A stretch of 64,000 nucleotides of DNA, taken from the NCBI GenBank assembly GCA_964430735.1, contig CAYSFB010000001.1, forward strand, positions 232,674 to 296,673, written 5' to 3'. A program made the position numbers and the translations under genes. How positions within the stretch are numbered: position 1 is the first letter of the stretch; every line of letters begins with the position of its first letter. Under the pieces are notes generated by a model that saw nothing but the letters and a program-made list of their open reading frames with translations, ran no database searches and was not told where the DNA came from. Below are positions 21,459-53,846 of this stretch, one piece after another. This DNA comes from an uncultured Planctomycetia bacterium (lineage in GTDB: Bacteria; Omnitrophota; Gorgyraeia; 2-02-FULL-51-18; JAGOUK01).

Positions 21459-22577
21459 TCAGACCTTCAAGAGGTCTTTCATTTTTTTCATGAACGAATG
21501 CGAAATCGGATGGGCCTTCTCGCCCGAAATTTCTGCGAATTGCTGCAGAAGCTCCTTCTGCTTGGAGCTCAACGCGGTCGGCGTCTCGACGACGACGCGA
21601 ACATGCTCGTCGCCGCGCCCGTCGCCCTTGATCGAGTGAATCCCCTTGCCCTTGAGGCGGAACACCTTGCCGGTCTGCGTGCCCGCCGGGACCTTGAGCT
21701 CGGTCGGACCTTCGAGCGTCGGGACTTTGATCTCGGCACCCAATGCGGCCTGCGCGAAGCTGATCGGCACGTCGCACAGGATGTCCGACCCGCTGCGTTT
21801 AAAAATCTCGTGCTCGTCGACGTGGATGTCCACGTAAAGGTCGCCCCGGTGGCCGCCTTTATGCCCTGCCTCGCCCTCGCCGGACACGCGCAGCCGCATC
21901 CCCGAATCCACGCCAGCCGGAACCTTGACCGTGATGGTCCGCTCAGTCGACTCGCGTCCGGAACCGCGGCAGGAACCGCAGGGTTTTTCGATGATCGACC
22001 CCTGCCCCGCGCAGGACGGACAGGGCCGGCGGATCTGAAAAAATCCGCTCGACGCCAGGACTTCCCCGGCGCCGCGGCAGGTCGTACAAACTTTTTTCTG
22101 GGTTCCGGGAGCGGCGCCCTGGCCGGCGCAGGTGCGGCAGACTTCTTCACGGCGGACGGGAACTTTTTTATCGCAACCATGGACGGCTTCCAAAAATGTG
22201 AGCTCCAGCTCGACGCCCAGGTCCGCGCCGCGCGCGGCGCGCTGGGTGCGGTGCTGGCCGCCGCGGCCGCCGCCGAAAAAGTCTTCGAAGATGTCCGAAA
22301 AAACGTCCGAAAAACCTTCCGCCCCTCCCGCGCCGCCGAACCCGGCTCCGCCGTTCACGCCGTCCATTCCGTAGCGGTCGTACGCCGCGCGCTTTTCGGG
22401 ATCCGAGAGGATCTCGTAGGCGCGGGAGTACTCTTTGAACTTTTCCTCGGCGTGTTTGTCGCCGGGGTTGCGGTCCGGATGGTGTTTGAGCGCGTGCTTG
22501 CGGAACGCGCTCTTGATCTCTTCGGCCGAAGCCGTCTTGGCGACGCCGAACAGAACGTACAAATCCTGAGTGGACAT
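21459..22577 (-). CDS. dnaJ: chaperone DnaJ
   Basis: J-domain HPD, G/F region, four CxxCxGxG zinc-finger repeats, and a C-terminal domain. Confidence 0.95.
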   Translation of the reverse strand: MSTQDLYVLFGVAKTASAEEIKSAFRKHALKHHPDRNPGDKHAEEKFKEYSRAYEILSDPEKRAAYDRYGMDGVNGGAGFGGAGGAEGFSDVFSDIFEDFFGGGRGGQHRTQRAARGADLGVELELTFLEAVHGCDKKVPVRREEVCRTCAGQGAAPGTQKKVCTTCRGAGEVLASSGFFQIRRPCPSCAGQGSIIEKPCGSCRGSGRESTERTITVKVPAGVDSGMRLRVSGEGEAGHKGGHRGDLYVDIHVDEHEIFKRSGSDILCDVPISFAQAALGAEIKVPTLEGPTELKVPAGTQTGKVFRLKGKGIHSIKGDGRGDEHVRVVVETPTALSSKQKELLQQFAEISGEKAHPISHSFMKKMKDLLKV

Positions 22578-22634
22578 ATCTGCCTATCTTATTGAAAAAC
22601 TGTTAAACCTAAAGATTCTAAAAAAACTTAACCA

Positions 22635-22756
22635 CAGTTCGTTCAAAAAGCCGCATATGCGAGGCGCCGGCGATGCGACCGCGGAGGCGTAGCAGCGCTA
22701 CGCCGCACAAGGGAGCGAGCCGGCAACGAAGCAGATGCGGCTTTTTCAACGAACTG
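22635..22756. repeat. 122-bp nested palindromic element (22-bp terminal inverted repeats around a GC-rich core), copy A
   Basis: CAGTTCGTTCAAAAAGCCGCAT...(78 nt)...ATGCGGCTTTTTCAACGAACTG with 21/22 arm complementarity. Inner hairpin GGCGTAGCagcGCTACGCC. Abuts the dnaK stop codon. Confidence 0.6.
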
Positions 22757-24673
<1,917 letters not shown>

Positions 24674-24713: not shown

Positions 24714-25217
24714 TTATGATTTTTTGCTAATCTTCACTTTGCTCGGACGCACGAGGCGGCCGTGCAGCGTAAAACCTTTTTGAACTTCCTCGATCACCGT
24801 CTCCTCGTCGCGCGACGCGTCCGTGACTTCCGCGACCGCTTCGTGCAGATTCGCATCGAAGGGCTGGTTGACGCTCGCGATCACTTCGACGCCGTTCTGC
24901 TCGAGAATCTTGTGGAACGTGTTCTGCGCCAGGTGCAGCCCCTTGAGGACCGTCTTCGGGTCGTGGCCCTGGTCGAGGCTCGAGATCGCGCGGTCGAAGT
25001 CGTCCACGACGAGCAGGAAGTCCGTGACGACCTTTTCGATCGCGTACTTCACCGATTCGTCGGCGCGCTTCTGGAGGCGCTTTTTCATGTTTTCGAAATC
25101 GGCGGCGGCCAGGAGATACTTTTCCTCCGCCTCTTTGAGCTTCTGCTGCAGCGCGTCCCACTCCGCCTGGGGAACGGTGACGGTCGGCTGCTGCTCGGCC
25201 TGTGATTCGTGCGTCAT
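24714..25217 (-). CDS. grpE: nucleotide exchange factor GrpE
   Basis: GrpE coiled-coil plus C-terminal beta domain; position between hrcA and dnaK. Confidence 0.9.
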   Translation of the reverse strand: MTHESQAEQQPTVTVPQAEWDALQQKLKEAEEKYLLAAADFENMKKRLQKRADESVKYAIEKVVTDFLLVVDDFDRAISSLDQGHDPKTVLKGLHLAQNTFHKILEQNGVEVIASVNQPFDANLHEAVAEVTDASRDEETVIEEVQKGFTLHGRLVRPSKVKISKKS

Positions 25218-25236: not shown

Positions 25237-26046
25237 TTAAATTTCGTCGAGCGTTTCGCTGACTTCGTCCGCCAGCCGCGACACGATGCCCACGGTGCGG
25301 TCGTAACGCATCCGGATCGGGCCCATCACGGCAAGGCAGCCGATCGGGCGGCCGTGGAACGTGTAGCGCTTCACGATCATGCTCACTTCGCGCAAACCCT
25401 CGCAGGTGATCTCTTCGCCGATGTAGACGTGCGTCGCGTCGTCGTCGATGTCCTTTTCGAGGAATTGCATGAGCGCCCGCTTGATCTCCAGTGCCCGGAG
25501 CAGCGCCTGCGCCCGCTGAATGTCGCTGAACTCCGGCTGTCCGAACACGTGCCGCGCGCCGTCGACATAGAGCCGGTGGAAGTCCCCCGTCCGGCGGGCC
25601 GCCGCGGCATCCGCCGCTCCGCCGCGCGCGTCCAAGTCCTGAATATACGAAAAGCGCGAAAGGTTCCGGACAAAGGCGAGCCCCGCGTTCTGGGTCAGCT
25701 CGGCCAGGATCTGCGCGGCCGTTTCGGCCACGTCTTCGATATCGTTGGCCCGGGCCAGCGTTTCATGGGCTTCCGGAAGATCGGCGGGCTGCTTGGCCTC
25801 GCCGGCAATCATCCGGTCGACGTAATAACGGTAACCGCGCGCGGTCGGGATGCGGCCGGCGGAGGTATGTGGCTGCTGGATGAAGCCCATTTCTTCGAGA
25901 TCCGCCATCACGTTGCGGATGGATGCCGGCGAAAGGCCTGCCGGGTACATGCGCGAAACAGTCCTCGACCCGACCGGCTCAGCGGTCTGGATATAGGCCT
26001 CGACGATGCATTTAAAGATACCGTCTAAACGGTCGTCTTGGTACAT
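25237..26046 (-). CDS. hrcA: heat-inducible transcription repressor HrcA
   Basis: N-terminal wHTH (IVEAYIQTAEPVGSRTVS); CIRCE operators immediately upstream; first gene of the hrcA-grpE-dnaK-dnaJ operon. Confidence 0.85.
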   Translation of the reverse strand: MYQDDRLDGIFKCIVEAYIQTAEPVGSRTVSRMYPAGLSPASIRNVMADLEEMGFIQQPHTSAGRIPTARGYRYYVDRMIAGEAKQPADLPEAHETLARANDIEDVAETAAQILAELTQNAGLAFVRNLSRFSYIQDLDARGGAADAAAARRTGDFHRLYVDGARHVFGQPEFSDIQRAQALLRALEIKRALMQFLEKDIDDDATHVYIGEEITCEGLREVSMIVKRYTFHGRPIGCLAVMGPIRMRYDRTVGIVSRLADEVSETLDEI

Positions 26047-26079: not shown

Positions 26080-26106
26080 TTAGCACTCTTGACTGTCGAG
26101 TGCCAG
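26080..26106. promoter_or_regulatory. CIRCE operator 1 (TTAGCACTC-N9-GAGTGCCAG)
   Basis: Left arm perfect, right arm 7/9 to the CIRCE consensus TTAGCACTC-N9-GAGTGCTAA. Lies just downstream of the predicted -10 of hrcA. Confidence 0.7.
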
Positions 26107-26142: not shown

Positions 26143-26169
26143 CTGGCACTCCAAAAAGTGGAGTGCTAG
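26143..26169. promoter_or_regulatory. CIRCE operator 2 (CTGGCACTC-N9-GAGTGCTAG)
   Basis: 7/9 and 8/9 arm matches to CIRCE. Lies immediately upstream of the -35 and overlaps the hflX stop codon. Confidence 0.6.
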
Positions 26170-27470
26170 CTGCGTTTGGAGACCGGCTTCTTGGAGGACC
26201 GGACGGGCTTAGCGGACTTGGGCTGGAGGGCCTTCACTTGGGCACGGATGGAGTCGCCGATGGCAGGCGCCAAAGCGACCTTTAGGTTCACGAATTGACC
26301 GTCATCCGAACGAGTGATCACCCGGCCTTCCTGGTAGATCCGATGGATGAGCTTCGCCTCCCCGGCCGGGATCTTGAACCGGTATTCATGGATCCAGGGC
26401 TTGAGCCCTTGGGCGACATGCTTGGCCAAGGTATCAAATCCGGTGCGATTGACGGCCGACACCCAAACCCCGTCACCCCATTGCCTGGCGAGTTTTTTTT
26501 GGTCCGCTTCGGTCACTTGATCGGCCTTGTTCAGAACCGTGATGAGGGGCTTGGTCGAAGCGCCCATTTCGTCGAGAATGCCGCGCACCGAGCGCTCAAG
26601 GATCACAGCCTTAGAGTCTGCCACGTCCATGACATGCAGCAGGAGGTCCGCGTTCATCACCTCTTCGAGCGTCGCCTTGAACGCGTCAATCAAATGATGC
26701 GGCAGGAGATGCAAAAAACCGACCGTGTCCACGAGCATGACCTTTTGTCCGCCTGGGATCTCGAACACGCGCACCGTCGAGTCGAGCGTGCTGAACAGCT
26801 GGTTCTTCGCGATGACTTCCGAACCGGTCAGCGCGTTAAAAAGCGTCGACTTCCCCGCATTGGTGTAGCCGACCAGCGCAACCACCGGCAATTCGTGCTC
26901 GCGGCGGCGTTCGCGATAGCTCTCGCGGCGGTCCTGCATTTTTTGAAGTTCTTTTTTGAGGAAGACAATGCGGTCGCGAAGACGGCGGCGGTCGACTTCG
27001 AGTTTTTGTTCGCCCGGACCGCGCGTACCGATGCCGCCGCCCTGCCGGGTGAGCATGACGCCCTGGCCGGCAAGACGCGGCATGAGGTAGGAGAGCTGCG
27101 CGAGCTCGACCTGCACCTTGCCTTCGTTGGAACGGGCGCGCTTGGCGAAGATGTCGAGGATGAGCTGGGTCCGGTCGATGGTCTTGCGGCCCACCAGCTC
27201 TTCGAGATTGCGCTGCTGGGTCCCCGAGATGTCGCGGTTGAGGATGACGACGTCGGCTTCGACGGCTTCCGCGCGGCGGCGGATTTCGTCCGCCTGCCCC
27301 GGCCCCATGTACATGCGGGGCTGCGGCGCCTTCATGACGAAGGTGAGCTCCAGCACGGCGGAGACGCCGGCGGATTTGGCGAGCTCCGCCAGCTCGCGCG
27401 CAGAATCCTGCGCCGACCAGCCGTCAGCCCGGTCCGCGAACATCAAGGTGACTAGAACCGCCTTTTCCAT
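26166..27470 (-). CDS. hflX: GTPase HflX
   Basis: N-terminal HflX domain followed by G-domain GYTNAGKST...DTVGF...NKAD. Confidence 0.9.
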   Translation of the reverse strand: MEKAVLVTLMFADRADGWSAQDSARELAELAKSAGVSAVLELTFVMKAPQPRMYMGPGQADEIRRRAEAVEADVVILNRDISGTQQRNLEELVGRKTIDRTQLILDIFAKRARSNEGKVQVELAQLSYLMPRLAGQGVMLTRQGGGIGTRGPGEQKLEVDRRRLRDRIVFLKKELQKMQDRRESYRERRREHELPVVALVGYTNAGKSTLFNALTGSEVIAKNQLFSTLDSTVRVFEIPGGQKVMLVDTVGFLHLLPHHLIDAFKATLEEVMNADLLLHVMDVADSKAVILERSVRGILDEMGASTKPLITVLNKADQVTEADQKKLARQWGDGVWVSAVNRTGFDTLAKHVAQGLKPWIHEYRFKIPAGEAKLIHRIYQEGRVITRSDDGQFVNLKVALAPAIGDSIRAQVKALQPKSAKPVRSSKKPVSKRS

Positions 27471-32451: not shown

Positions 32452-32478
32452 TTGGCACTCTCAAATACCGAGTGCTAA
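32452..32478. promoter_or_regulatory. CIRCE operator 3 (TTGGCACTC-N9-GAGTGCTAA)
   Basis: 8/9 and 9/9 arm matches; lies 27 nt upstream of the hsp20 ATG. Confidence 0.7.
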
Positions 32479-35569: not shown

Positions 35570-35748
35570 AGGCCTCCGTGGTGAAGCGCTATTATAAACG
35601 ATTCTCCCCCATTAGACGCCCCCAACCCCTACAAGGTTTAGTCCCTAGACCGAGCGCCGCCCCAGCGGCGTAACTCCCCCACACGAGCGCCGCGTGCAAC
35701 GCGGCGTACGCAAAAAAACCGATTCCCAATATGCCCCAACTCAGGCCC

Positions 35749-35856
35749 ATTTTTTCCAAATAACAGGTTCAGATGCAAGGCGCGAGGGAGCGCCGCGCAC
35801 TCTACGGTGCGCAAGCTCCCGAGCAACGCAGCAGATGAGCCTGTTATTTGGAAAAA
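35749..35856. repeat. 108-bp nested palindromic element (18-bp perfect terminal inverted repeats), copy B
   Basis: TTTTTTCCAAATAACAGG...(72 nt)...CCTGTTATTTGGAAAAAA. The core has nested hairpins GGGAGC.../GCGCACcgtagaGTGCGC and the motif GCAACGCAGCAGATG shared with copy A. Ends 1 nt from the tRNA-Lys 3' end. Confidence 0.6.
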
Positions 35857-35857
35857 A

Positions 35858-35933
35858 TGGTGAGACCGCTGGGGATCGAACCCAGGACACCTTCCTTAAA
35901 AGGGAAGTGCTCTACCAACTGAGCTACGGTCTC
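35858..35933 (-). tRNA. tRNA-Lys (anticodon UUU), CCA encoded
   Basis: Minus-strand sequence GAGACCGTAGCTCAGTTGGTAGAGCACTTCCCTTTTAAGGAAGGTGTCCTGGGTTCGATCCCCAGCGGTCTCACCA folds as a canonical cloverleaf: 7-bp acceptor, GCTC/GAGC D-stem, CTTCC/GGAAG anticodon stem, loop CTTTTAA, TTCGATC T-loop. Confidence 0.9.
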
Positions 35934-42842: not shown

Positions 42843-42993
42843 AGGACGCCCTGCGGCAGATGCAGGTCTTCTACGAACAGAGCCGCTCGCGCGCTGTCAA
42901 AGACTAGGCGCGCTTGCTCCTTGCTCCTCCTCGGCGGGGACGCCTCGTCGGAGCAAAAGTTCTACGAAGACCTACATCTGCCGCAGGGCGTCC
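42843..42993. repeat. 151-bp nested palindromic unit 1 (about 35-bp imperfect terminal inverted repeats)
   Basis: AGGACGCCCTGCGGCAGATGCAGGTCTTCTACGAAC ... GTTCTACGAAGACCTACATCTGCCGCAGGGCGTCCT. Interior holds GCGCGC...GCGCGC, TTGCTCC...GGAGCAA and the 23-mer CCTCGGCGGGGACGCCTCGTCGG. Begins 5 nt after the lpxB stop. Confidence 0.6.
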
Positions 42994-43025
42994 TAAATCT
43001 ATTCGCTTGAACGCAGTTGCTGGGT

Positions 43026-43176
43026 GCCCGCAGGGAGGAAGCGGTATGGCTTCGAAGGGCTTTTTGTCCGACGAGGCGTCCCCGCCGAGGAGGACAAATG
43101 GAGCGGGCGCGCCTCGTCTTAGACAGCGCGCCCGCGGCTATGCCCGGAAAAGCCATGCTGCTTCCTCCCTGCGGGC
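43026..43176. repeat. 151-bp nested palindromic unit 2 (17-bp perfect terminal inverted repeats), with interior similar to the reverse complement of unit 1
   Basis: GCCCGCAGGGAGGAAGC...GCTTCCTCCCTGCGGGC. Interior holds CCGACGAGGCGTCCCCGCCGAGG (exact reverse complement of the unit-1 23-mer) and GCGCGCctcgtcttagacaGCGCGC (about 85% to the reverse complement of the unit-1 counterpart). Ends 22 nt before the glnA stop. Confidence 0.6.
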
Positions 43177-43197
43177 AAACCGATCAACGAAGAGAAA

Positions 43198-53625: not shown

Positions 53626-53846
53626 AGTCGTCAAACCCCCGGGGGATCGGGTAAGGAGCCGGTTGCCGCGGGGGATGTCCCGCGGCAACTGCGGCGAATT
53701 CGTCGTGATCACTCAAAACCCGTGCTCGACCGGTCTGGCCGGCGCCTCCGTTACCGCGGAACATCCCCCGCGGCTTCGTGCGCAAGCCCCGAATCCGCAG
53801 TGCTGGTGTCAGTCAGACGCCAGGCACTCGGAAACAGCTGGATAAG

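Follow-up and report, generated by a model that had tools for sequence, protein, structure and literature searches.

Several families of small, hairpin-forming repeats have been described in bacteria. Correia elements (CREE/NEMIS) are cleaved by RNase III and alter the expression of neighbouring genes (PMC10969869, PMC5039591), the stability of an mRNA is altered where ERIC has inserted at the 3′ end of the gene (PMC10969869), and elements of the two families, which are cut by RNase III or expose RNase E sites, alter mRNA levels of the flanking genes (PMC10969869). A dispersed repeat of another lineage resembles an intrinsic terminator (PMC10969869, PMC3049150). Chunjie, a miniature non-autonomous transposon (MITE) of Geobacter uraniireducens, has inserted in an operon without disrupting it and forms a very stable hairpin; it is 178–235 bp long and A+T-rich, with 21-bp terminal inverted repeats and 9-bp direct repeats (PMC3184786). 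Reviews hold that the cores of small hairpin repeats share nothing (PMC3184786). Here we describe a hairpin element, designated E1, in the spacer between dnaK and dnaJ in a 64,000-nt stretch (the window) of contig CAYSFB010000001.1, from an uncultured bacterium placed in the Omnitrophota. E1 is probably a copy of a dispersed, non-coding, hairpin-forming family of MITE-like elements that inserted directly after the dnaK stop codon in an ancestor, and its RNA hairpin, followed by five U residues, would attenuate or process the dnaK-dnaJ transcript.

In their general features Correia elements resemble the family: they are 100–155 bp long, multicopy, intergenic and often co-transcribed, have long terminal inverted repeats that fold the whole element on the mRNA, and occur with long and short cores. 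ERIC/IRU sequences are similar in being imperfect palindromes (~127 bp) in transcribed intergenic regions. With the terminator-like dispersed repeat the family shares, by description only, the idea of a spreading terminator module, and we know of no conserved cross-phylum core in that repeat. Chunjie was ruled out by its size and 9-bp repeats, the duplications here being ~6 bp and the core G+C-rich. REP/BIME/REPIN sequences, which are 20–40 nt long and species-specific with conserved arms and a variable loop, were also rejected, the search for a RAYT gene being confined to the loci; in this family it is the arms that vary, around a conserved interior. Several features expected of MITEs are present: the elements are short and non-coding, have terminal inverted repeats, and are dispersed with presence/absence differences among relatives.

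Structure of E1 and its likeness to a second element

E1 is an inverted repeat at window positions 22634–22757, on the minus strand in gene sense, and fills 124 nt of the 179-nt dnaK-dnaJ spacer (~145 nt with a possible tail). Its arms (22634–22660 and 22731–22757) are 27 nt each, complementary at 25 of 27 positions (93%) and separated by 70 nt, and the outermost paired base, 22757, is the final A of the dnaK TAA stop codon. The initial annotation had placed an inverted repeat flush with this stop codon, and that is where it lies, with arms somewhat longer than the 22 bp claimed; the perfect 8-bp inner hairpin that it described is also there (GGCGTAGC/GCTACGCC at 22686–22693 and 22697–22704, with a 3-nt loop, agc). 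On the sense strand the layout is arm, CATCTGCTTCGTTGC, 55 nt of helices, GCGCCTCGCATATG and second arm. As RNA, the sense strand forms one rod with a folding energy between -73 and -76 kcal/mol (z between -5.1 and -7.3), and none of 200 shuffled sequences was as stable. Only mechanical open reading frames (ORFs) overlap the element. Its sequence was recovered in independent Logan assemblies from three runs, whole in L001 and L003 (L-numbers denote retrieved contigs and loci) and with contig L002 beginning within it, and E1 is a genuine sequence and not an assembly artefact.

The core motif of E1, GCAACGAAGCAGATG on the plus strand at 22723–22737, recurs with one mismatch at 35823–35837 in an element next to a tRNA-Lys gene, designated E2. 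There are no further matches in the window at up to two mismatches; 0.09 are expected, and two matches occurred in none of 100 shuffles, so that the motif said earlier to be common to the two elements is confirmed against a chance expectation of 0.09. In the sense direction E2 reads arm, CATCTGCTGCGTTGC, 39 nt, GCGCCTTGCATCTG and second arm. Both core motifs are common to E1 and E2 while the arms are wholly different, and the 5′ arm of E2 begins with the encoded CCA of the tRNA-Lys(UUU) gene (tRNA span 35858–35933). The kinship of E1 and E2 also stands when tested with a covariance model of the family (R1, see below): E2 scores 78 bits although it lay outside the training set. By the terms of the initial annotation, the family hypothesis would have been refuted by relatives that keep the spacer with no likeness to the 35.8-kb and 42.9-kb elements beyond chance; relatives do carry the element, and its likeness to E2 is far beyond chance. 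The outer stem of E2 is 21 bp, and in the primary transcript this hairpin would tie up the 3′ end of the tRNA-Lys.

A dispersed family with a conserved core

Further copies were sought with the exact pattern CATCTGCTKCGTTGC-N40-70-GCATMTG in one representative genome per species, and at least 120 stretches matched (88 listed). By the labels of the genome records, on which all phylum assignments here depend, the matches listed fall in the Desulfobacterota, Aminicenantes/Acidobacteriota, Bacteroidota (Bacteroidales), Kiritimatiellae, Planctomycetota, Verrucomicrobiota (Verrucomicrobiales), Chlamydiae, Elusimicrobia, Nitrospiria, Rokubacteria/Methylomirabilota, Selenomonadales (Bacillota), Beta- and Gammaproteobacteria, Omnitrophota and Kaiserbacteria (CPR group); among them is one isolate genome, that of Desulforhopalus sp. 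IMCC35007. The G+C content of the copies ranges from 31 to 74% and the inner helices track host composition, which argues for long residence and not contamination.

In gene sense, which is the minus strand in the window, the layout is arm, CATCTGCTKCGTTGC, variable helices, GCGCCTYGCATMTG and second arm, and single-sequence folds of members from different phyla give the same rod throughout. From the outside inwards it consists of an outer stem (P1), a CA/UG step, a 2x2 mismatch, a UGC/GCA helix, a 3x3 internal loop, a GU/GC step with a bulged U, a variable helix (P2) and an apical CGUAC/GUACG hairpin; the apical hairpin of E1 corresponds to this CGTAC..GTACG helix. P1 is ~17–21 bp long and variable in sequence; one of its sides usually contains GAAAAA-N4 and the opposite one N4-TTTTT. 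It is followed by a conserved core junction that differs between the strands, CAUCUGCUKCGUUGC being imperfectly paired with GCGCCUYGCAUCUG. Many copies continue past the hairpin with a spacer and a repeat of the 3′ arm.

Covariation, which is seen in both P2 and the inner helix P3, was tested on 74 long-type members that were aligned with MAFFT and given a structure written by hand, the controls having their partners slid by 1–3 columns. In this alignment 73.7% of cells are paired, against 32–47% in the slid controls, and both-side changes number 516 against 215–342. R1 was built from the same alignment, and in the model alignment 79% of cells are paired (30–48% in controls) with 1021 both-side changes (257–354 in controls); P1 is paired in ~81% of cells across the family, and a U-G pair is kept in 105 of 109 copies. 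In the window R1 detects E1 (109 bits), E2 (78 bits) and nothing else, and in the fetched loci it finds 110 and 35 copies, some of them missed by the exact pattern. They include two more in the genome of a close relative, and in relative L005 the family is present at other sites. What matters may be the structure of the RNA, that of folded single-stranded DNA, or the two together.

The family is apparently undescribed. With Rfam 15, nothing in the window or in 18 loci of the family attains the gathering score; when E is relaxed to 10, only generic hairpins (microRNA models, Xoo2 sRNA) are matched by E1, only weak chance matches besides the adjacent tRNA by E2, and nothing by a further copy in L053. 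A full-text search for the core 15-mers as DNA or RNA found no paper in the library covered, and concept searches (mobile terminator repeats, Correia-like elements) found nothing relevant. Among plasmids, neither E1 nor a consensus-like copy had a BLAST match, and a beta/gamma-type copy matched only an unannotated stretch of a Nitrosomonas plasmid; E. coli genomes gave no match. Only two matches were present in 2.9 million viral contigs, so phages are no major carrier. Three independent short-read assemblies (L002, L136 and L137) have contigs that begin inside the dnaK-dnaJ hairpin, and the family probably causes contig breaks systematically in metagenome-assembled genomes (MAGs).

Dispersal and target sites

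The genes around the copies differ from locus to locus without relation, and when 788 neighbouring ORFs were clustered, the only recurrent families were generic ones (sigma-54 activator/kinase, ABC ATPases), with no transposase beside any copy among the clustered neighbours in the 8-kb loci searched. Copies can be dense, with two in the 64-kb window and four in 8 kb of L059. The Desulfocapsa-type subfamily has a unit of GATGGCGTCGTAAAAACTCTT, core, AAGTTTTTTACTTAGCCATC, an 8-nt spacer and CCTTTTTACGAGTTTATC, so that the arm stands once at the left end and twice, in direct orientation, at the right. Both ends could be read in 11 copies, of which about 8 are flanked by 4–7 bp A+T-rich direct repeats (AACCTT, AAATTG, AATTTT, AATTCT, AGATTT, TTGTTT, AACAAT, AGTT), which lie outside the arm plus tail, and the whole 20-nt arms are conserved. 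These target-site duplications suggest DNA transposition with a staggered cut. No target-site duplication is detectable for E1, E2 or the Omnitrophota-type copies, and it is from the behaviour of the family that we infer transposition of E1 itself. The proposal in the initial annotation that a mobile palindromic repeat family had inserted in the operon is thus strongly supported, by hundreds of related copies under many phylum labels and by the duplications in this one subfamily, and the family is much broader than had been supposed there.

A different possibility is that only the core is mobile, integrating site-specifically at the CA-TC-TG centre of existing palindromes such as bidirectional terminators, with the arms being target DNA and CATCTG being duplicated at the junctions. 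The direct orientation of CATCTG at both core ends fits this, as do the unrelated arms of E1 and E2 and the tRNA CCA within the E2 arm; at the dnaK-dnaJ site in relatives (see below) the same arm surrounds a long core in the window and L136 and a short one in L137, and L005 and L008 have arm hairpins without the core. However, inner arms are common to unrelated loci, as with the E1 inner arm GAAAAAGCCG, which adjoins cores elsewhere, and in the Desulfocapsa-type loci the conserved arms were never found without a core and the direct repeats are outside the arm plus tail. The L005 hairpin also retains remnants of the 3′ core motif, which fits a deletion better than an empty site, and a 65–90 bp double-stranded circle would be an implausible recombination substrate. 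We therefore regard mobility of the core alone as rather improbable. A related idea, that the core is a parasite of pre-existing MITE hairpins, was rejected, the arms never being core-less in the subfamily examined.

Several copies are themselves interrupted or enlarged. In L024 (6455–6940) a copy is interrupted after the 5′ core motif by an ORF for a 148-aa PD-(D/E)XK nuclease-family protein (PF13366, E = 1e-39), a small gene that has inserted into the family copy. Copies in L053 (5374–5564) and L057 (about 1960–2160) are enlarged or nested, one of them having extra G+C-rich hairpins in P2 and the other consisting of two elements in tandem or nested; they suggest that elements of the family insert into one another. 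The arms of copies in L049, L092 and L128 contain GAACGAAAACTCAC, which we take to be part of the Tn3 38-bp inverted repeat.

Position relative to stop codons

The abutment of E1 on a stop codon recurs in the family. In 15–18 copies from different phyla the upstream same-strand gene ends 16–21 nt before the core, that is at the start of P1, with TAA, TAG and TGA all represented, and the positions richest in stop triplets are -22 (24 of 126 copies) and -20 (17 copies) from the core, other positions having ~5. For antisense copies the convergent genes end 44–54 nt beyond the core, a distance made up of the 3′ arm, the spacer and the third arm. In the subfamily with duplications the stop codon is formed by the last T of the A+T-rich target and the GA that opens the arm. 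The explanation may be a preference for A+T-rich targets together with selection against gene disruption. Orientation is biased, not fixed: 39 copies are downstream of a sense gene, 24 face the end of a convergent gene and 8 lie between divergent genes. In an Omnitrophota MAG (L043, 4288–4450) a copy with E1-like arms has a stop codon on one side and, on the other, a canonical intrinsic terminator (CCCCATCGTGCC...GGCACGGTGGGGTTTTT), and this copy does not replace the native terminator.

An imperfect hairpin on the 57–141 nt scale that starts at a stop codon is also reminiscent of the single-stranded recombination sites (attC) of integrons, and GTTAAGT after the 3′ arm of E1 fits GTTRRRY; the 5′ arm presumably resembles the aadA attC as well. 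There is, however, no complementary RYYYAAC box, the 5′ side reading AAGTAAC, the window has no cassette array or integrase, and the copies at dnaK-dnaJ and tRNA-Lys are single and stand among housekeeping genes. Both the conserved internal core and the A5/U5 module are foreign to attC sites, which conserve structure only, and an attC-like origin is the least credible of the explanations considered here. Retron, IS200/IS605-type and dif-like readings were also set aside, since the features by which we take these elements to be defined are missing.

History of the dnaK-dnaJ site

A comparison of the dnaK-dnaJ spacer in relatives, which the initial annotation had proposed as a check, shows an orthologous copy, decayed remnants, or no element. 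Contigs of seven relatives were compared, with DnaJ proteins 84–87% identical to that of the window and dnaJ third codon positions 58–63% identical. Two of the contigs begin inside the hairpin. One of these, L136, has the same long core type: of the 64 nt that run from the apical hairpin to the U-tract 57 are identical, as are 30 of 30 in GGCGTAGCGCTGCTACGCCTCCGCGGTCGC, and the sequence past the 3′ arm is not alignable; the copy is thus 89% identical against 58% at dnaJ third codon positions. The other, L137, has the same 3′ arm with a short core like that of E2. L005 has a 116-nt spacer with homologous arms that form a perfect 17-bp stem (CAGATGCC...GGCATCTG) followed by U6; CATCTG boxes are present without the inner core, remnants of the 3′ motif are in the loop, and R1 aligns at 21.9 bits with its inner 71 positions missing. 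In L008 the spacer is 90 nt, with homologous outer arms around an unrelated 20-bp hairpin and UUUUGUU. Only part of the 5′ arm is left in the 37-nt spacer of L138 and only the outermost 7 bp of the arms in the 58-nt spacer of L004, and nothing is recognisable in the 31 nt of L135.

The simplest account is a single old insertion that is intact in some lineages and has been eroded from the centre in others. Erosion from the centre is known for long palindromes. An ancestor of the clade, probably within the Omnitrophota, would have gained a copy directly after the dnaK stop codon, and this copy would have been kept intact in some lineages and have decayed from the centre outwards in others. The differing core of L137 means that such a history also needs conversion from another copy or re-insertion. 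Conservation of the intact copies could reflect selection on the host at this site, conversion with active copies as the source, or the same subfamily having inserted more than once independently.

The same comparison bears on whether E1 is instead a dedicated cis-regulatory element that evolved in the dnaK operon and resembles other hairpins by chance. The element does lie inside an operon controlled by CIRCE/HrcA and is conserved at the site in relatives. But the same element is present beside tRNA-Lys and at >140 unrelated loci, which refutes a chance likeness, and some close relatives have an empty site or remnants only. We give a dedicated origin very little weight.

Possible effect on dnaK-dnaJ expression

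No promoter-like site is found by a scan of the dnaK-dnaJ spacer, and dnaJ transcription would therefore run through E1. The transcript would fold into a rod of about -73 kcal/mol followed by U5: the base of the rod is GCCG...CGGC with UUUUU directly after it, and the opposite side has an A5 tract, which gives the module a symmetry like that of bidirectional terminators. L005 and L008 keep a hairpin and U-tract at the site without the core. The long hairpin followed by U5, and its retention with a U-tract in relatives, make attenuation or processing plausible. Most likely, transcription would be partly terminated at this intrinsic signal, the 3′ end of dnaK would be protected, or a double-strand-specific RNase would cut the long duplex; with any of these, less DnaJ would be made than DnaK. 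The stem-loop is far longer than those of canonical terminators. The suggestion that the element acts as an attenuator or as a stability or processing stem-loop is thus a plausible consequence of its insertion, and not an account of its origin.

Evidence for and against a MITE origin

In our favoured explanation the family is a miniature non-autonomous transposon, and the target-site duplications, the conservation of arms within a subfamily and the absence of core-less arms fit this better than they fit a functional RNA or a core integrating into palindromes. Several observations nevertheless weigh against it. A strand-asymmetric conserved core with CATCTG directly oriented on both sides is not expected of a decaying MITE, nor is an orthologous copy conserved to the extent seen in L136. 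At E1 no clear outer terminal repeat or target-site duplication was identified, and in the 8-kb loci no autonomous transposase-carrying relative was seen and no split 5′ and 3′ halves enclosing an ORF, apart from the unrelated PD-(D/E)XK gene in L024. As to an action in the transcript, about half of the family lacks an uninterrupted T5, so that termination is not a universal role and a termination reading applies to this copy rather than to the whole family; a simple terminator scan, whose loop limit excludes long rods, does not call E1, and there are the copies between divergent genes. Counts of G-U and A-C in variable pairs show no strand preference. Template-switch correction of quasi-palindromes is an established mutational mechanism that also yields compensatory change in inverted DNA repeats, and because it can mimic covariation the latter is no proof of selection on RNA.

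The conserved core and the 89% identical orthologue point to a sequence-specific function. This raises the question of whether the family is a structured non-coding RNA in which the core is functional (protein-binding, processing or catalytic) and mobility is secondary. Conserved, strand-asymmetric internal loops between covarying helices would be expected of such an RNA, as would the retained U-G pair, a core maintained in genomes with many phylum labels, the slow change of the orthologous copy relative to dnaJ third positions, and the favouring of the sense orientation downstream of genes (39 against 24). Core conservation is overstated, however, because the search pattern itself imposed exact core motifs, and the variable pairs show no excess of G-U over A-C. 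The duplications and repeated arms of one subfamily, the occurrence of both orientations and of positions between divergent genes, the absence of a promoter of its own at E1 in the spacer scan and the lack of any Rfam family match even at E up to 10 also argue against it. We consider a primarily functional RNA unlikely, and a MITE family the probable source of E1.

Relationship to Correia and ERIC sequences

The 156-nt Correia sequence used for comparison was confirmed by a match of 96.8% identity over its full length, present in at least 40 places in a Neisseria gonorrhoeae chromosome. When a short Correia element is aligned to R1 it scores 27.6 bits, and GCGUUG, CGUAC..GUAC and CGCCUUG fall in register; generic terminators at the same locus score ~20 bits from the arms alone. 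The E. coli ERIC sequence scores 17.5 bits, and the first 12 bases of the 5′ motif match it at 11 of 12; CAUGUGCUGCGU of ERIC corresponds to CAUCUGCUGCGU of the family directly inside the arm, and there is GUCGCCUUCCUG on the other side. In an ungapped two-motif test against dinucleotide shuffles the p values are 0.3–0.4 for Correia and 0.05 for ERIC, neither being significant.

There are also clear differences. The 26-bp terminal inverted repeat of Correia elements, TATAGTGGATTAA(C/A)A... (variants in PMC5039591), is absent, and neither E1 nor the family at large has arms related to it. The TA duplication is not seen, E1 being preceded by TA and followed by GG and one subfamily here having ~6 bp; CREE lack the CATCTG boxes and are restricted to one genus, as opposed to the many phylum labels here. 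The arms of ERIC differ too, and the family has no BLAST match in E. coli. Homology to either has not been demonstrated by these comparisons. Just inside their right arms ERIC (L139, 255–391) and Correia (L129, 10132–10246) sequences have common strings, TCGCCTT..CCTG, that are also present in this family. This may hint at a deep relationship among the classic MITE-like repeats but has no statistical support.

Genes and other features of the window

Coordinates of the heat-shock operon and of the family members are given in Table 1. A sigma-70-like promoter lies upstream of hrcA, between two CIRCE-like inverted repeats (26080–26106 and 26143–26169). The window contains three such repeats (TTAGCACTC-N9-GAGTGCTAA, with 1–3 mismatches), the third, at 32452–32478, being presumably upstream of groES/groEL.

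Table 1. Coordinates of E1 and its parts, of E2, and of genes of the dnaK operon region in the window
Feature	Position	Strand	Remarks
P1 5′ arm of E1	22738..22757	-	Sense ACAGTTCGTTGAAAAAGCCG; holds the family GAAAAA-N4 module; aligned to model positions 9-28
Conserved 5′ core motif	22723..22737	-	CATCTGCTTCGTTGC (plus strand GCAACGAAGCAGATG); columns invariant or nearly so in 74 to 110 members
Variable inner rod (P2, internal loops, P3)	22668..22722	-	Includes apical hairpin 22686-22704, GGCGTAGC-agc-GCTACGCC
Conserved 3′ core motif	22654..22667	-	GCGCCTCGCATATG
P1 3′ arm of E1	22634..22653	-	Sense CGGCTTTTTGAACGAACTGT; U5 directly after G+C-rich rod base; kept in L136, L137 and L005
Possible degenerate third arm (tentative)	22614..22629	-	Sense AAGTTTTTTTAGAATC; 4 nt past 3′ arm; weak similarity
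E2, second family member, short-core type	35747..35860	-	78.2 bits with the family model
dnaJ	21459..22577	-	NF008035, 505 bits; start 56 nt downstream of E1 3′ arm
dnaK	22757..24673	-	NF001413, 1054 bits; stop codon 22757-22759 abuts E1
grpE	24714-25217	-	
hrcA	25237-26046	-	
hflX	26166-27470	-	

The possible third arm of E1 is called by analogy with the arm-spacer-arm tail of other subfamilies. An 8-nt direct repeat, TAACAGTT in the sense direction, is present at 22752–22759 and 22598–22605 (154 nt start to start); it was rejected as a relic of duplication, about one such repeat being expected by chance in 400 nt. The hexamers CAGATG/CATCTG are not enriched across the window.

An element at 42.9 kb had also been grouped with E1, and in this case the kinship does not hold, R1 detecting nothing there. 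Two adjacent ~150-nt hairpins (42843–42994 and 43024–43178) lie between convergent genes at this position. They have a common internal core in opposite orientation (58–66 nt at 76–83%) and their own arms, paired at 89–93%, and the pair folds at -220 kcal/mol (z = -13.8). Because R1 does not detect them, they are a different hairpin repeat family. Elsewhere in the window there is a G+C-rich 32-nt inverted repeat (53665–53696 and 53743–53774; 88% complementary, 46 nt apart).

Significance

Small hairpin repeats (MITEs, REPs, ERIC, Correia) are usually deemed lineage-specific, and here the same core junction of 15 and 14 nt is present under many phylum labels. The family is unusual in its conserved structured core, in the many phylum labels of its hosts and in its abutment on stop codons. 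The arms and inner helices have turned over while their pairing was kept, which implies that some partner or function, as yet without a name, is conserved. R1 can be used to annotate many intergenic hairpins in MAGs, and the family would explain assembly breaks at these sites.

It is tempting, but decidedly speculative, to see in these elements an ancient and essentially pan-bacterial superfamily of hairpin repeats. The core would be held constant by a widespread transposase or recombinase acting on the folded single strand, or by a host factor of universal occurrence that binds RNA or DNA. Divergent branches might include ERIC and Correia, and individual copies, that at dnaK-dnaJ among them, could have been domesticated as intercistronic terminator or processing modules. 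We doubt that the evidence reaches this far, but such a superfamily, if real, would explain an orthologue conserved at 89% where synonymous sites are saturated. E1 itself lies at a classic control point for the stoichiometry of a heat-shock operon, and offers a testable case of a selfish hairpin that is used or tolerated as an intercistronic attenuator.

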